Shown here piece after piece: positions 17,940 through 59,454 of a stretch of 64,000 nt of DNA (its first letter is position 1; each line of letters opens with the position of its first letter). The notes under the pieces were generated by a model. That model worked only from the letters and a program-made list of their open reading frames with translations, searched no databases and was not told the origin of the DNA. The stretch is from Candidatus Micrarchaeota archaeon (GTDB lineage: Archaea > Micrarchaeota > Micrarchaeia > Anstonellales > Anstonellaceae): the NCBI GenBank assembly GCA_964581105.1, contig CAZOMB010000004.1, forward strand, positions 672 through 64,671, written 5' to 3'. The translations under genes were made by a program, and so were the position numbers.

Positions 17940-18503
17940 TTGTTTTTCCCTGAAATTCTCAAAAAGTGCAAAAGAGGCCCGCAAGTGGTCCTGCCAAAAG
18001 ACATAGGGGTAATACTTGCTTTTTCAGGTGTTGGGAAAAATTCCCTTGTAATTGATGCGGGGGCAGGGTCTGGCTGGCTTGCAATAGCACTTGCAAACAC
18101 TGCAAAAAAGGTTGTCACTTATGAGTGGAGAGAGGAGTTTGCCTCTCTTTGCGAAAAAAATGCAAAGCGCGCTGGTGTTGAAAAGACCCTTTTAGTGAAA
18201 AGAAAGGATGCTTTTAAGGGATTTGAAGAAAAAAATGCTGATTTGGTCACTCTTGACATGGCAGATTCTGACAAACTGGTAAAACATGCATACAAAGCAC
18301 TGAAAAAAGGAGGCATGGTATTTGGCTATTTGCCGCATGTCGGGCAGGCGCAAAGGTTTTTTTCTGCATGCGAAAAGTCTGGGTTTGAAAAAATACATAT
18401 GGTTGAAAGCATTATGAGAAACTATCTTGTAAGAGATGTTGGAATAAGGCCTGAAAACACTGGGCTTACTCATACAGCTTATATTGTTTTTGCAGCAAAG
18501 TAA
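17940..18503 (+). CDS. SAM-dependent methyltransferase, tRNA (m1A) methyltransferase TrmI/Gcd14-like
   Basis: VIDAGAGSGWLAIALA is SAM-binding motif I. The overall layout resembles TrmI (COG2519). Confidence 0.65.
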   Translation: MFFPEILKKCKRGPQVVLPKDIGVILAFSGVGKNSLVIDAGAGSGWLAIALANTAKKVVTYEWREEFASLCEKNAKRAGVEKTLLVKRKDAFKGFEEKNADLVTLDMADSDKLVKHAYKALKKGGMVFGYLPHVGQAQRFFSACEKSGFEKIHMVESIMRNYLVRDVGIRPENTGLTHTAYIVFAAK

Positions 18504-25730: not shown

Positions 25731-26834
25731 TTACCCCAATAAATCAAGGTCAAGCTCCTCAGCCTGCCCTGCTAATTGTGAAGCTTCCTTTTTCAGCTCA
25801 TAATGCGGGAATTTTGCCCCAGCAAGGACTGCCAAAACCTTGATTGAGCTCTTTTTTGCGCTTTTCTCAATCCTTGCGCCCCAAATAATGTGAGATGACG
25901 GGTCAATCCTCTTTGAGACTTCGCTCACAATAAGCTCAGCCTCCTTTAATGTCATGTCCTCCCCGCCAACAACATTGATAAGTGCCCTGCTTGCTGAAGT
26001 GACGTCAACATCCAAAAGAGGCGAATTCATTGCAGTGTCAACAGCAATAAGTGCCCGCTGGTCTGGCTTTGCCTCAACTGAAGCCTCTCCCATGCCAACA
26101 ACAGCACAGCCTGCTGCTGACAGGATTGTCCGCAAATCTGCAAAGTCAAGGTTCACAAGGCCTGCTTTTGTCACAAGCTCTGCAATCCCTTTTACAGCGC
26201 CTGCCAATACTTCGTCAGAAACCTTGAATGCTGTGTTAAGCGGAAGGTCTGGCACTATTGAGAGCAATTTGTCATTTGGTATTACAACCACTGTATCTGC
26301 ATGCTTTCTCAGTTTCTCAAGGCCTTCAAGCGCATTTTGCATCCTTATCTTCCCTTCAGATGAAAAAGGCAGGGTAACAACAGCTATTGTAAGCGCGCCT
26401 GCTGTTTTTGCATTTTCTGCTATTATGTGCGCGCTTCCTGTCCCTGTTCCTCCGCCCATTCCACAGGTAATGAAAAGCATCATTGAGTCTGACACTGCAT
26501 TTTTTATCTCAGAAGCCGACTCTTTTGCAGCAGCCTCCCCAAGCTGCGGGTTTGAGCCTGCGCCCATTCCTTTGGTTGTTTTTTTGCCAAGCAGTACTTT
26601 TTTGTCTGCCCTCATTTTCACCAAATGCTGAACATCAGTATTCATTGCAACCAATGTTACGCCGTCTATTTTCATCTCATGAAGCCTGCTCATTGTATTG
26701 CAGCCAGAGCCGCCAGCGCCAACAACAAATATGCGAGGCTTTGATGACTCTATGAACTTGAGTAGCTCCTCATCTTCCTTTGAGACAGTGACCCCTTCAG
26801 GGATCTGCTTTTCAACATTGTTCATGCTTGCCAT
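25731..26834 (-). CDS. ftsZ: Cell division GTPase FtsZ
   Basis: VVGAGGSGCNT and GMGGGTGTGSAHIIAE are the tubulin/FtsZ signatures. Confidence 0.9.
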   Translation of the reverse strand: MASMNNVEKQIPEGVTVSKEDEELLKFIESSKPRIFVVGAGGSGCNTMSRLHEMKIDGVTLVAMNTDVQHLVKMRADKKVLLGKKTTKGMGAGSNPQLGEAAAKESASEIKNAVSDSMMLFITCGMGGGTGTGSAHIIAENAKTAGALTIAVVTLPFSSEGKIRMQNALEGLEKLRKHADTVVVIPNDKLLSIVPDLPLNTAFKVSDEVLAGAVKGIAELVTKAGLVNLDFADLRTILSAAGCAVVGMGEASVEAKPDQRALIAVDTAMNSPLLDVDVTSASRALINVVGGEDMTLKEAELIVSEVSKRIDPSSHIIWGARIEKSAKKSSIKVLAVLAGAKFPHYELKKEASQLAGQAEELDLDLLG

Positions 26835-28518: not shown

Positions 28519-28640
28519 GTGTCAGCAGCAACGTGCTTTCCCGCTCACAGAGCAGTACAGGCAGTGTCGTGAGAGGGCTTAACTTCCGAGTTCGGAATGG
28601 GTTCGGGTGTTTCCCCTCTCCTATGACCGCTGACAGGCAG
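28519..28640 (-). rRNA. 5S ribosomal RNA, about 122 nt, stand-alone
   Basis: The minus-strand sequence is CUGCCUGUCAGCGG...CCGAACUCGGAAGUUAAGCCCUC...GCUGCUGACA. It has the conserved loop C/helix III core CCGAAC...GGAAGUUAAGC. Helix I is formed by UGUCAGC/GCUGACA. An AAATAAAAA TATA-like box sits about 25 nt upstream at 28655-28672. Confidence 0.8.
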
Positions 28641-53898: not shown

Positions 53899-55593
53899 AT
53901 GAAAGAATCAACAAAGCTCAAGTATGAGCTCAAAAAGCAGCTTGCCCATTTGCGCGGCATGAAAGGCAGTGGAACTGAGCTGATATCAGTTTACATACCT
54001 GCAAACCAGGCAGTGCATGAGACCTCAAGCAAGCTTAAGGGGGAATCAGGCCAGGCATCAAACATAAAGAGCAAAAGCACAAGGAAAAATGTAGGAGACG
54101 CGCTTGAGAAGATAATTCATCATTTGAAAAGCTATGGAAACAAGGCGCCAAGCACAGGGGTTGCAATATTTTGCGGCAATGTTTCTGACAGCCCTGCAAA
54201 AACAGACATTTCTCTTTTCACTGTGTTTCCCCCTGAGCCGTTGGGAGTCCAGCTTTACCGCTGTGACTCTCGCTTTTTCTTGGAGCCGCTTGAAAGGATG
54301 CTGGAATCAGACGAAACATACGGGCTTGTAGTGCTTGACGGAAGGGAATGCACAATTGCAGAGCTTCGGGGGACAGTTGTCAGGACATTGCACAGGCTAA
54401 ACTCCACTGCGCATGCAAAAATCCGGAAGGGAGGACAATGCCTTGCGCCTGATACTCTTGTTCAGACTTCAGATGGTGAGCTGGTACCTGTTTCTGAGGT
54501 TGTCCCGGGAATTAAAATAAAAGGAGCAGATTTGTCAAAGCTTAAGATATGCGATTGGGAGTGTTCCGACAAATTCAAAACAAAGTCAAAAAAAGCATAT
54601 AGGATAGCTGTTCAGAACTCAAAGATGGAAATTGTCGCAACTGCATGGCATCGGTTCTTTACAGTCGGAAAAAAAGGCATTGAAGAAATCTATGCAAAAA
54701 ACTTGAAGATAGGAAGTGTTCTACTTATTGCCAGAAAAGCGTTCAAGAATGACCCTGACACAAAGCATGGTGAGCCATCTGAAAAAATGCTCAAAAAATG
54801 GCTGTCTGAAGACATTGGAGTGGCAAGAGTGGCAAAACTAATACCAATAGAAGGAGAAAAAGAATATATTGACCTTACTGTGCCAAATGCATTCAACTTT
54901 GTGGCAAATGGCTTTATTGTGCACAACAGCGCCCGCAGATATGAGAGACTGATTGAAGAGTCAATTGAAAAGTATTACAAAAGGGTGGGAGTGTCAATGG
55001 ACAGGTATTTTGTTAACAAGGTAAAAGGAGTGATAGTTGGAGGCCCTGGCCCCACAAAGGAGAATTTTGTGAAAATGTCGCCATTTAATTACCAGATAAA
55101 AGTGCTTGGAGTGGTTGACACTGGCTATACTGATGACTATGGGGTAAGGGAGGTAATGGCAAAAAGCAAGGACATTATAGCAGAGCAGGCTGCAATAAAG
55201 GAAAAAGCGCTTGTTGAAAGGTTCATAAAAGAAGTTGTGTCAAACGGGCTTGCCACTTATGGGGAAAAAGAAGTAAGGCAAGCCTTAAAGGTAAAAAAGG
55301 CATCAAAGCTGCTTGTATCAGAAGGCTTGGAATACAAGAGGGCAAAGCTTGTTGATACTACTACAAAAGAAGTTCATTATGCAACCACAAAAAGCCCTTC
55401 TGAGCTTGAGGAAAAAATAAAGAAAATTGGCGGCACAGTAAAAGTTGAGGAGCAAATACCGCTTATTGATGACTTGATTGCCCTTGCTGAGGAAAAGAAC
55501 ATTGAAGTAATTGTAATTTCCCCTGACACTGCAGAAGGAGCGCAATTTTTAGGCTCATTTTACGGCATAGGCGCATTTTTGAGGTACCGCTAG
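53899..55593 (+). CDS. prf1: Peptide chain release factor aRF1 precursor interrupted by a mini-intein
   Basis: The N-terminal GSGTELISVYIP and the GGQ motif are present. The C-terminus ...FLGSFYGIGAFLRYR is typical aRF1. The extein lengths sum to about 401 aa. Confidence 0.85.
   Translation: MKESTKLKYELKKQLAHLRGMKGSGTELISVYIPANQAVHETSSKLKGESGQASNIKSKSTRKNVGDALEKIIHHLKSYGNKAPSTGVAIFCGNVSDSPAKTDISLFTVFPPEPLGVQLYRCDSRFFLEPLERMLESDETYGLVVLDGRECTIAELRGTVVRTLHRLNSTAHAKIRKGGQCLAPDTLVQTSDGELVPVSEVVPGIKIKGADLSKLKICDWECSDKFKTKSKKAYRIAVQNSKMEIVATAWHRFFTVGKKGIEEIYAKNLKIGSVLLIARKAFKNDPDTKHGEPSEKMLKKWLSEDIGVARVAKLIPIEGEKEYIDLTVPNAFNFVANGFIVHNSARRYERLIEESIEKYYKRVGVSMDRYFVNKVKGVIVGGPGPTKENFVKMSPFNYQIKVLGVVDTGYTDDYGVREVMAKSKDIIAEQAAIKEKALVERFIKEVVSNGLATYGEKEVRQALKVKKASKLLVSEGLEYKRAKLVDTTTKEVHYATTKSPSELEEKIKKIGGTVKVEEQIPLIDDLIALAEEKNIEVIVISPDTAEGAQFLGSFYGIGAFLRYR
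54439..54927 (+). mobile_element. Mini-intein (163 aa) inserted directly after the GGQ motif of aRF1
   Basis: In KIRKGGQ|CLAPDTLV... the intein starts with Cys (block A). VATAWHRFF is block B TxxH. It ends ...NFVANGFIVHN|SARRYERL, with HN plus a +1 Ser (block G). There is no homing-endonuclease domain. Confidence 0.75.
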
Positions 55594-56546
55594 CGTTTCC
55601 CAAGAGAAGTAGGCATGTTAAGCCCAGTGAAAATTGCCATTGCCTGAAGCTTGCCTGCAAAGCTTTCTTCCATCCTTGCGCCATAAATTACATTTGCATG
55701 CGGGTCTATCTGCTCTGTCAAAAGCTCTCCTGCCCTTGTTGCATCGCCAAGCGTCAGGTCAGCACCGCCTGTAATATGCAAAAGAACGCCTTTTGAGCCT
55801 TCTATGTCAACGTCAAGCAGCCTGTTTTTCAGAGTGTTTTTCACCAAATCATCCACCCTTCCAACGCCAGCTGCCTCGCCAACTGCAATCATTGAAATTC
55901 CTCCCCCTTGTGCAACTGTCCTGACATCCATATAATCCAGATTCAGAAGGGATGGCTCAAGTATGGTTTTTGAAATGCATCTTACAGCCCTTGCCATTAT
56001 CTCGTCAAGAAGCTCAAATGACTTTTCAATTGGCATGTTAGGCGCATACTCTAAAAGGCGGTTGTTGTCAATAAGCACAAGTGTGTCTGCAACTTTTTTC
56101 AGGTTTTCAATTCCTTGCTGAGCCTTTTGCAGCCTTGCCCTTTCAATTGTAAAAGGATAAGTTACAAATGCTATTACTATTGCGCCCTGCTCTTTTGCTA
56201 TTTGGGCAATAACCGGAGATGCGCCTGTTCCAGTTCCGCCCCCCATTCCGCATGTTATGAAAACAAGGTCTTTGTCAGACAGTATTTCCTGTATTTTCCT
56301 TTTTGAAGAGGTTGCTGCCTTTGCTGCAACCTCAGGAAAGCCCCCAGCCCCAAGGCCTCTTGTGACTGCCCCTCCGATAAGGCAGCGCTTTGCCTTTTCA
56401 GAAACAATGTTAAGGTGCTTTTTGTCTGTATTAAACGCTGCAAGCTCTGTTTTTCCAACTCCCATCCTGACTAGCCTGTTTATTGTGTTGCAGCCTGCTC
56501 CTCCAACTCCTGCTACTGCGATTGCTGGCTTGCCTTCCTCATCCAT
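55590..56546 (-). CDS. FtsZ/tubulin-family GTPase (second paralog, FtsZ2/CetZ-like, 318 aa)
   Basis: AVAGVGGAGCNT and GMGGGTGTGASPVIAQ are the tubulin/FtsZ signatures. Confidence 0.8.
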   Translation of the reverse strand: MDEEGKPAIAVAGVGGAGCNTINRLVRMGVGKTELAAFNTDKKHLNIVSEKAKRCLIGGAVTRGLGAGGFPEVAAKAATSSKRKIQEILSDKDLVFITCGMGGGTGTGASPVIAQIAKEQGAIVIAFVTYPFTIERARLQKAQQGIENLKKVADTLVLIDNNRLLEYAPNMPIEKSFELLDEIMARAVRCISKTILEPSLLNLDYMDVRTVAQGGGISMIAVGEAAGVGRVDDLVKNTLKNRLLDVDIEGSKGVLLHITGGADLTLGDATRAGELLTEQIDPHANVIYGARMEESFAGKLQAMAIFTGLNMPTSLGKR

Positions 56547-57204: not shown

Positions 57205-57474
57205 GACGGCAGGATAGGTCAGGAGAGTAGGGGCCTCCTTTACTACAAATCCCCTTTGGTAGGGCCGAATGTCCGGCAGAGTCTCAGGTGAGGCTGCAAG
57301 GCTCAGGCTTTAAGCGTCGACGTTTTGCCTTGCCGGACGGTTCATTGTGCCAAACGGGTCAGGCCGGAAGGAGCAGCCCTACGCATTCTGTCCCGTGCTG
57401 GCAAGTACCAAGACTGAGCAGCGGTCTGATTCACCTTGCATTTTTGTCTTTGGCCCTCTGGAAATCCTGCCGCA
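57205..57474 (+). ncRNA. Signal recognition particle RNA (7S RNA), about 270 nt
   Basis: GGGUCAGGCCGGAAGGAGCAGCC matches the universally conserved SRP helix 8 region (GGUCAGGUCCGGAAGGAAGCAGCC). The 5' CGGCAGGAU (57207-15) pairs with the 3' AUCCUGCCG (57464-72) to form helix 1. GCUGCAAGG pairs with CCUUGCA in helix 5. A TATTTAAAGG box lies at 57177-86, about 25 nt upstream. Confidence 0.7.
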
Positions 57475-58221: not shown

Positions 58222-58434
58222 TTATTTTCGGAATTTTTCAGAATAGCATTTTTTGCAAAAGCTGTGCACAAAGCCTGAATTGTCAATGTGCTGCTTTTGG
58301 GTTTGCTTGCTAAGCTCTGTTTTGCATATTTCACATGCAAGGTAATTGTTGTACATTTTTGCCCCTCTGCCACAAATCAGCCCAAAAGGGCTTAGAGGTA
58401 TTTTTCGGCAAACAAATAAAAGCTTGCTTTCCAC
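58222..58434 (-). CDS. Small zinc-ribbon protein. The likely start is the internal Met at about 58356.
   Basis: Two Cys pairs are present (CEICK ... CKKCY). Confidence 0.35.
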   Translation of the reverse strand: MESKLLFVCRKIPLSPFGLICGRGAKMYNNYLACEICKTELSKQTQKQHIDNSGFVHSFCKKCYSEKFRK

Positions 58435-58449
58435 CTAAAAGCCTTGTGC

Positions 58450-58592
58450 TGGGGTCGCATAGCCCGGTTAGTGCGGCAGGTTGCTAACCTGTTGGGGATT
58501 TTCCCCTCGCGAGTTCAACGAAGCTTTTTCGGTTTGCCTAAAAAGCTTCAGCAAAAACCAGAAAAGCTCGAACAAATCTCGCCCCCGGCGCT
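58450..58592 (+). tRNA. tRNA-Ser (anticodon GCU) with a 57-nt non-canonical intron in the T-loop (58521-58577)
   Basis: The acceptor GCUGGGG/CCCCGGC has one G.U pair. The D-stem is GCAU/GUGC with a GG-containing loop. The anticodon stem is GCAGG/CCUGU with loop UUGCUAA. A 16-nt variable arm carries a GGGGA-UUU-UCCCC hairpin (class II). The T-stem GCGAG/CUCGC encloses a TTCAAAT loop only after removing the 57-nt insert, which itself forms a 10-bp hairpin (GAAGCUUUUU/AAAAAGCUUC). The discriminator is G and an oligo-T follows. Confidence 0.7.
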
Positions 58593-58702
58593 TTCTTTTT
58601 TGAAAGCGACGGACCAGTGGAGTGAAGCTCCAGTAGGGCCGGCGTTTTTTTTCAAAAGAAATATAAGCATGCCCATATAACAAAAATAGGAGGCTTGATT
58701 AC

Positions 58703-59032
58703 TTGGGAAAAATTGCATTCATACTTTCCGCAGCCCTTTTGCTGAATGTCCTGGCAGCAGCTACAATGCTTACCTCTGTCCAGGAAGCAGTTTCAGAGAT
58801 GTGCATAAGCCTGAAAAGCCTTTTGCCAGTGGTTGCAATGACAATGCTTATCCTCGGCGGGGTAATTTATGCTGCTGGGCAGATGATGGGTGCTGAGACA
58901 AGGGCAAGGGGAAATGTGTGGGCAACTGCCTGCTTAACAGGGGCATTGATTGCAATCCTCATAGTAATAGTCGCACAGCCTGTTCTTCAGATGATTTACG
59001 GTGACCTTGGCACAGTTGCCTGCGAGCTTTAG
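58703..59032 (+). CDS. Small secreted 2-TM protein, VirB2/TrbC-pilin-like architecture (paralog 1)
   Basis: A signal-like N-terminus is followed by two hydrophobic helices separated by the conserved loop AAGQMMGAETRARGNVWATA. Confidence 0.5.
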   Translation: MGKIAFILSAALLLNVLAAATMLTSVQEAVSEMCISLKSLLPVVAMTMLILGGVIYAAGQMMGAETRARGNVWATACLTGALIAILIVIVAQPVLQMIYGDLGTVACEL

Positions 59033-59100
59033 GGGAGCCGGCTCCAGTGCAGTTTAAAAAGATTAGCAACATTATTTTCTATAACAGATAAAGGAGGGAT

Positions 59101-59454
59101 TTGATGAGAAAATTAATGGTATTTGTGATGTTTGCAATGCTGGCAGCAACAGTTTTTGCCCAGACAGTTCCAACAAGTAGGATCTACGATGCAGCTGAGG
59201 CCTTGTACTGCGGACTTCGAGACGTCCTCCCAGTAATTGCAATGCTTATGATAATCGTTGCAGGAGTGATTTATGCTGCTGGGCAGATGATGGGTGCTGA
59301 GACAAGGGCAAGGGCAAATGTATGGGCAACTGCTGCTCTTACAGGAGCATTGATTGCAATACTGATTGTTGTAATTGCACCTTCTGTGTTCAGCATAATT
59401 TACGGAACAGGTTGGGAAGTGCCACCATGTTCTGGAATAACTTCAAGAAACTAG
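59101..59454 (+). CDS. Small secreted 2-TM protein, VirB2/TrbC-pilin-like architecture (paralog 2)
   Basis: It shares VIYAAGQMMGAETRARANVWATAALTGALIAILIV nearly identically with paralog 1. Confidence 0.5.
   Translation: MMRKLMVFVMFAMLAATVFAQTVPTSRIYDAAEALYCGLRDVLPVIAMLMIIVAGVIYAAGQMMGAETRARANVWATAALTGALIAILIVVIAPSVFSIIYGTGWEVPPCSGITSRN

Follow-up and report, generated by a model that had tools for sequence, protein, structure and literature searches.

A probable bulge-helix-bulge intron in the T-loop of a tRNA-Ser(GCU) gene of Micrarchaeota

Genes and features at the locus

A class-II tRNA-Ser(GCU) gene whose exons are interrupted in the T-loop is present on the plus strand of the 64-kb stretch of DNA that was analyzed (the window). 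The gene was delineated by reading of the sequence at positions 58300–58750, and its elements are listed in Table 1 together with the other features of the window. The exons display the conserved tRNA nucleotides U8, A14, G18G19, U33, A37, T54-T55-C56, A58 and G73, and the long variable arm, the Ser anticodon, G73 and the tertiary nucleotides are those of a class-II tRNA-Ser. An earlier sequence-only reading had described a complete class-II tRNA-Ser(GCU) with a 16-nt variable arm, and all of these elements are found in the sequence. The gene itself was thus correctly recognized, however its position was given as 58450–58592, which is 2 nt off.

Table 1. Elements of the interrupted tRNA-Ser(GCU) gene and other features of the window. 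The bulge-helix-bulge (BHB) elements and cuts are predicted.
Feature	Position	Strand	Sequence or remarks
tRNA-Ser(GCU) gene	58448–58590	+	class II
5′ exon	58448–58518	+	71 nt; tRNA positions 1–58, acceptor 5′ strand to T-loop U54–A58; aligns with intron-less orthologues
Acceptor, 5′ strand	58448–58454	+	GCUGGGG; pairs with CCCCGGC at 58583–58589
U8	58455	+	U
D-arm	58457–58474	+	GCAU/GUGC, loop AGCCCGGUUA, G18G19 present
Anticodon stem	58476–58480 / 58488–58492	+	GCAGG/CCUGU
Anticodon loop	58481–58487	+	UUGCUAA
Anticodon	58483–58485	+	GCU (Ser); from sequence reading and ARAGORN
Variable arm	58493–58508	+	16 nt
T-stem, 5′ strand	58509–58513	+	GCGAG; partner CUCGC at 58578–58582
BHB central helix, 5′ strand	58513–58516	+	GUUC (G53–C56); 4/4 pairs with 58570–58573
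T-loop start	58514–58518	+	UUCAA
5′ bulge	58517–58519	+	AAC; predicted cut after A58518
Insert	58519–58575	+	57 nt; between tRNA positions 58 and 59
Inner helix h′, 5′ strand	58520–58528	+	A58522 bulged; part of MFE fold; alternative partner 58540–58549
Inner helix h′, 3′ strand	58562–58569	+	9-bp helix with 58520–58528
BHB central helix, 3′ strand	58570–58573	+	GAAC
3′ bulge	58574–58576	+	AAA; predicted cut after A58575
T-loop end	58576–58577	+	AU (A59, U60)
3′ exon	58576–58590	+	15 nt; A59, U60, CUCGC, CCCCGGC, G73
T-stem, 3′ strand	58578–58582	+	CUCGC
Acceptor, 3′ strand	58583–58589	+	CCCCGGC
Discriminator	58590	+	G (G73); CCA not encoded
T-run	58592–58602	+	CTTTCTTTTTT, just 3′ of the discriminator
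Structured trailer	58591–58652	+	two hairpins, then a tRNA 3′ end copy, then a T8 run; direct repeat D2, inverted repeat I3
GCD14/TrmI-family tRNA methyltransferase	17940–18503	+	Pfam E = 1e-19
FtsZ paralogue	25731–26834	−	
5S rRNA gene	28520–28634	−	stand-alone; 78 bits
aRF1 gene	53899–55593	+	with mini-intein
FtsZ paralogue	55590–56546	−	
Archaeal SRP RNA (RF01857)	57207–57472	+	92.5 bits; E = 1.7e-19
TrbC/VirB2-like pilin genes	58703–59454	+	two small genes in tandem

The interruption hides the gene from standard scanners, as had been anticipated. ARAGORN reports 0 tRNAs in the raw 64-kb window, and the Rfam search of the locus gives a partial tRNA match at positions 58448–58511 that scores 25.2 bits and is below the gathering score of 29. 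After deletion of the 57 nt, ARAGORN returns a tRNA-Ser(gct) of 87 nt, a length that includes one surplus 3′ nucleotide; the spliced product in silico is 86 nt. Removal of a 57-nt insert therefore does restore the cloverleaf, as the earlier reading had it. The predicted exon junction after splicing is ...GAGUUCAA/AUCUCGCC.... The identical precursor sequence is found in the ENA assembly and in the Logan assembly of another run, i.e. in independent assemblies.

The oligo-T tract that had been noted after the discriminator is presumed to be an archaeal transcription terminator, and a run of at least four T residues is found within 20 nt downstream of the gene in 51 of 71 orthologues. On the 5′ side, a TATA-like sequence, AAATAAAAG, is at −34 to −26 of the tRNA gene and is a plausible promoter. 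A position-fixed TATA box was not seen among 71 orthologue upstream regions, which makes the promoter assignment weak.

Several neighboring features may be recorded here. The SRP RNA match, roughly 1 kb from the tRNA gene on its 5′ side, overlaps a spurious open reading frame and is slightly below the gathering score of 96.5 bits. In the gene for the peptide-chain release factor aRF1, a mini-intein of some 150 aa (Pfam Intein_splicing match) is inserted directly after the catalytic GGQ motif, ...KGGQ/CLAPD...VHN/SARRYERL. The two pilin-like genes are just downstream of the tRNA gene, and arrays of such genes are present in relatives, e.g. at locus L017.

The T-loop insert and its boundaries

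In the archaeal BHB rule, as formulated for introns at position 37/38, four helix nucleotides on each strand are followed by a 3-nt bulge that is cut after its second nucleotide. When the rule is applied to registers 56/57 to 60/61 of the tRNA, register 58/59 alone gives 4/4 central pairs, 3-nt bulges and the consensus T-loop. The intron is thus placed at positions 58519–58575. Registers 56/57, 57/58, 59/60 and 60/61, among them the one that corresponds to removal of 58521–58577, were rejected because no more than one of the four central-helix pairs forms or the T-loop departs from the consensus. The earlier proposal that the insert is between T-loop positions 58 and 59 agrees with the BHB register. 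That proposal was made to depend on a BHB-like motif at the junctions, and such a motif is present, i.e. a GUUC/GAAC helix with the bulges AAC and AAA.

The intron starts with CGAAGC, ends with GAACAA and is flanked by exons of 71 nt and 15 nt; its removal leaves a T-loop of UUCAAAU. Deletions of positions 58517–58573, 58518–58574 and 58519–58575 are sequence-equivalent, and all give TTCAAAT. The TTCAAAT loop had been predicted before, however from splicing out positions 58521–58577, a deletion that gives TTCAACG; removal of 58519–58575 is needed.

The BHB core consists of a 4-bp helix between two 3-nt bulges on opposite strands, and both predicted splice sites fall within these bulges. In a strict hBHBh′ motif the core is stabilized by the flanking helices h and h′. 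Here h′ has 9 bp and one bulged A, and the outer helix h has 2 bp (A58512-U58577 and G58511-C58578, i.e. A52-U60 and G51-C61 in tRNA numbering) and requires re-pairing of the T-stem. The BHB rule was cross-checked on 21 orthologous introns, where the predicted cut restores the T-loop TTCAAAT in 21/21. One of these, L091, permits a single register from the sequence alone, and that register agrees with the BHB-defined cut.

Self-splicing introns of group I and group II, which have a ribozyme core of hundreds of nucleotides, were considered and rejected: the insert is 57 nt and has no match to an Rfam intron family at E ≤ 10. At the same threshold, the Rfam search of the locus gave noise only (mir-3167, SQ1002) besides the partial tRNA, with no sRNA family in the intron, and inspection of the intron by eye found no C/D-box motif.

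The MFE fold of the T-arm plus intron has a free energy of −20.6 kcal/mol (z = −3.0 versus shuffled sequences). In this fold the T-stem is intact, the intron helix I2 is formed, and UUCAA (5 nt) and AACAAAU (7 nt) are single-stranded. The BHB conformer is above the MFE by 2–4 kcal/mol in the context of the T-arm and by 6.6 kcal/mol in the whole precursor; its formation breaks the G53-C61 pair and shifts the T-stem register. The insert also contains a 10–13-bp inverted repeat, hairpin I1, at positions 58520–58532 / 58537–58549. This is the 10-bp hairpin of the earlier reading. It is present, but it competes with h′, the pairing that closes the canonical BHB, and if I1 forms the 5′ bulge stays unclosed. 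The 3′ part of the intron is an internal duplication, D1 (AAAAGCTTCAGCAAA / AAAAGCTCGAACAAA), and the duplicated copy supplies h′ and GAAC.

The GCD14/TrmI family, of which a member is encoded in the window, methylates A58 and in archaea also A57. Since the predicted 5′ cut is made directly after A58, its modification would presumably come after splicing.

Orthologous genes and their introns

Relatives were found by a genome scan with a 5′-exon-only pattern and by a metagenome scan limited to T-loops not followed by A. The scan patterns left everything 3′ of GAGTTCAA unconstrained; as only the 5′ exon was constrained, the conserved 3′ end of the introns is not an ascertainment artefact. A homologue search with the neighboring Yip1 protein gave five proteins, too few for use.

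About 76 micrarchaeal tRNA-Ser(GCU) orthologues were collected, and nearly all of their records are labelled Candidatus Micrarchaeota, Micrarchaeia, Anstonellaceae or Bilamarchaeaceae. By these labels and by synteny, the host of the window gene belongs to Micrarchaeota (DPANN) and is probably Anstonellaceae-like. The majority are uninterrupted and read GAGTTCAAATCTC across exactly the 58/59 junction. The spliced window tRNA has 87%–91% identity to intron-less orthologues, the differences being mostly in the variable arm. The T-loop is TTCAAAT in 83/83 uninterrupted tRNA-Ser genes of the genome scan, including all intron-less micrarchaeal orthologues. ARAGORN identifies tRNA-Ser(gct) in each of ten uninterrupted orthologues tested and misses 15 of 17 interrupted ones. 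Standard tools would list the AGY-decoding tRNA-Ser(GCU) of the present genome as missing, and this would skew estimates of completeness and decoding for DPANN MAGs.

The same T-loop carries 21 distinct introns in the collected genes, 15 at position 58/59 and six at 59/60. Those at 58/59 are 18–182 nt long and have unrelated interiors. In these an invariant GUUC is opposite GAAC (11 introns), GAAU, GAGC, GGAC or AAAC; the variants are wobble-compatible, and 4/4 central-helix pairs are formed in 14 of the 15. The introns at 59/60 have UUCA opposite UGAA, UGGA, UGAC or UGUC, and their outer helix is the intact 5-bp T-stem.

Three further loci, in a Nanoarchaeota-labelled MAG and in groundwater metagenome contigs (L047, L123 and L145), have tRNA-Ser(GCU)-like genes in which the T-loop insert belongs to the CCCTTTTCTTT...AAAGAAAAGG hairpin family. 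In these genes the 3′ acceptor strand is not matched by the 5′ acceptor or D region, which may reflect a second intron or a rearrangement.

Searches by tblastn with the neighboring proteins show a conserved order in many loci, in which tRNA-Ser is placed between Yip1 and an array of pilin-like genes and FtsZ is on the far side of Yip1. By its position, the window gene is thus orthologous to the intron-less genes and no stray copy. An intron at 58/59 is present in all four of the loci that are closest to the window in FtsZ identity (65%–73%). These are L065 (identity 73%, intron of 20 nt), L025 from Anstonellaceae (71%, 182 nt), L168 (68%, 85 nt) and L107 (65%, 18 nt). Within this sub-clade the intron thus keeps its position, whereas its interior can change freely.

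Clear homology (z = 10) was found between the window intron and the 42-nt intron of L024. The hairpin that they have in common differs by a compensatory change, UUUUU/AAAAA versus UUUCUUU/AAAGAAA. No other copy of the window intron was found in the window or in the collected loci. L024 has the same exons as L080 and L093, which are intron-less. Similarly, the exon type with the GGTCCAGTGC D-arm is found in an intron-less state (L013, L037 and L077), with introns at 58/59 (L010, L143, L161 and L172) and with introns at 59/60 (L052 and L071). The presence of the same exons in three intron states indicates that intron turnover is fast relative to exon change.

Trailer and duplications of the tRNA 3′ end

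The tRNA gene is followed by a structured trailer. The first hairpin takes in the last bases of the tRNA (58585–58595 / 58602–58612), and the tRNA 3′ end is repeated as CCGGCG at 58639–58644, after the second hairpin and ahead of the T8 run. At least eight orthologous loci (L105, L051, L013, L127, L143, L182, L102 and L017) have a trailer of the same architecture whose sequence differs. The last 6 nt of the tRNA are repeated within 110 nt in 12 of 73 orthologues, compared with about two expected.

Longer copies of the tRNA 3′ end, of 11–16 nt, are found 36–95 nt downstream of the intron-less genes L094, L022, L032, L030, L031 and L008. Some are in tandem, with a period of 80 nt in L094 and 47 nt in L030, and the copies in L094 and L022 begin at T-loop nucleotides 58–60, the same place as the introns. 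These longer copies may represent proto-introns, or they may have been left behind by recombination. The L052 intron and the inter-repeat spacer of L094 display a similarity that is only marginal (z = 3.8, p about 0.01) and thus does not establish that introns arose from trailer duplications. The tRNA 3′ end was also considered as a viral attP site; a scan of IMG/VR gave 18 matches, all of them chance matches inside unrelated sequence, and this candidate was rejected.

Throughout Micrarchaeota, the T-loop of tRNA-Ser(GCU) could be a hot spot for the repeated gain, loss and replacement of BHB introns in the neighboring registers 58/59 and 59/60. This turnover might have a mechanistic link to the 3′-end duplications that start at T-loop nucleotides 58–60 and to the structured trailer, features that accompany the gene in many of these genomes. 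This is put forward as a tentative suggestion, which we consider rather unlikely. It is based on the finding that genomes with 100% identical exons differ in whether the intron is absent, at 58/59 or at 59/60, and that a homologous intron is present in divergent host tRNAs (the window gene and L024). Tandem duplication or a small mobile element that makes proto-introns could provide the link to the duplications and the trailer. If the suggestion is true, the set of orthologues would provide a series of natural snapshots that show how tRNA introns are born. The 21 introns at two adjacent sites, present or absent among identical exons, constitute the kind of series that reviews of tRNA-intron evolution have requested (PMC4033280).

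Predicted splicing and alternative explanations

The sequence at 58448–58590 is very probably a functional, syntenic tRNA-Ser(GCU) gene of Micrarchaeota (DPANN) with a 57-nt BHB intron at position 58/59, as judged by comparative sequence evidence. It is not a chance resemblance, since it has 87%–91% identity to intron-less orthologues and the identical locus is found in independent assemblies.

For this genome we infer the following cleavage and ligation steps, together with the enzymes that would perform them. The gene would be transcribed as a precursor of about 143 nt. The T-arm region would then refold such that G53–C56 (GUUC) pairs with the intron GAAC, creating the bulges AA/C and AA/A, flanked by the 9-bp intron helix and the 2-bp outer helix. 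The archaeal tRNA-splicing endonuclease would cut after positions 58518 and 58575, the second nucleotide of each bulge, and a ligase of the RtcB type would join the exons to give the 86-nt tRNA with the T-loop UUCAAAU, with CCA added afterwards. No splicing endonuclease or ligase gene was found in a Pfam scan of 20 unassigned open reading frames of the window, and tblastn with an approximate M. jannaschii EndA query gave no match in the window or in 180 loci, though with so weak a probe this does not argue for absence of the gene.

A different explanation is that the gene is a pseudogene, i.e. a tRNA-Ser(GCU) killed by a 57-bp insertion that is never removed, for example the footprint of a mobile element, with a working copy elsewhere. 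Failure of the scanners to recognize the gene fits this explanation, as does the fact that the BHB is not the MFE fold. The genome beyond the 64-kb window could hold a second, intact tRNA-Ser(GCU), and the partial 3′-end duplications near orthologues show that the locus is recombinationally active. However the exons are intact and orthologue-like, and the gene occupies the syntenic slot of the intron-less gene in other genomes. In addition, the closest relatives share the site of the insert, the GAAC-type helix and the 3-nt bulges in spite of unrelated interiors. A conserved BHB core with variable interiors is what is expected under selection for splicing and not under decay, and a pseudogene is therefore considered very unlikely. 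An artefact, be it a chimeric assembly or a cloverleaf formed by chance in non-coding DNA, has a negligible probability: although the contig comes from a metagenome assembly, the ENA and Logan assemblies have the same precursor, dozens of orthologues display the same exons, and synteny is conserved.

The insert may also be a real intron that is removed in another register, i.e. at 59/60 (58520–58576, giving UUCAACU), as 58521–58577 (giving UUCAACG), or through a relaxed motif in the MFE fold with an intact T-stem. Position 59/60 is the published T-loop site of ARMAN-2 (PMC3239211) and is used by six orthologous introns, and the MFE fold keeps the T-stem and has 5-nt and 7-nt single strands beside the intron helix. 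In the window, however, registers 59/60 and 60/61 give 1/4 central-helix pairs, and the T-loops that would result are absent from all orthologues; TTCAAAT is the T-loop of the 83/83 uninterrupted tRNA-Ser genes of the genome scan. Another register is thus considered slightly less probable even than a pseudogene, and excision of the BHB intron at 58/59 is the preferred reading.

Comparison with known tRNA introns

It is established that D-loops, T-loops and acceptor stems can harbor BHB introns (PMC3241643, PMC6379350). The intron predicted here resembles the canonical intron at 37/38, which has a strict hBHBh′ motif, in its 3-4-3 core and in the predicted cut after the second bulge nucleotide of each strand, and it would presumably be processed by the same pathway of endonuclease and RtcB. 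Unlike the canonical intron, it is in the T-loop and has a 2-bp outer helix that competes with the mature T-stem.

Thermoproteales and other Crenarchaeota have non-canonical and multiple tRNA introns, (αβ)2 endonucleases and rapid intron gain, for which intron transposition has been proposed (PMC4033280, PMC4090602). The micrarchaeal introns are similar to these in being outside of 37/38, including in the T-loop, in having strict or relaxed BHB motifs, in their presence or absence among close relatives, and in the occurrence of intron families common to different host genes. They differ in that the hosts are DPANN archaea represented by mesophilic MAGs, and in that turnover is documented here at one hot spot of one tRNA, in two adjacent registers, in contrast to many positions in Crenarchaeota.

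The closest known case is in the same phylum. In ARMAN-2 (Ca. Micrarchaeum acidiphilum) 56% of tRNA genes are disrupted, and T-loop introns are found in tRNA-Cys(GCA) at 59/60 and in tRNA-Pro(GGG) at 53/54 and 59/60 (PMC3239211). The earlier statement that non-canonical tRNA introns occur in DPANN lineages is thus in line with T-loop introns already documented in Micrarchaeota. The three-unit ε2 endonuclease of ARMAN-2 has broad specificity and cleaves strict and relaxed motifs in vitro, including that of a 59/60 intron (Fujishima et al. 2011, PMC3239211); its structure is 4FZ2 (PMC3488258). As in ARMAN-2, the window gene encodes a pre-tRNA with a T-loop intron and a BHB-type junction motif that is missed by standard scanners, and the 59/60 site of ARMAN-2 is shared by six of the orthologous tRNA-Ser introns. 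Unlike ARMAN-2, the host here is tRNA-Ser(GCU), the site is 58/59, i.e. one nucleotide upstream, and the intron is 57 nt in length compared with 13 nt in tRNA-Cys. Furthermore, the predicted central helix of the window intron recruits G53 of the T-stem and would force the T-stem to re-pair.

On all sequence-level criteria the window intron matches the ARMAN-2 kind. T-loop introns were already known in Micrarchaeota, and the novelty is the location in tRNA-Ser at 58/59, without a new mechanism. The locus adds a 58/59 T-loop intron of tRNA-Ser to the small set of non-canonical introns documented in Micrarchaeota.
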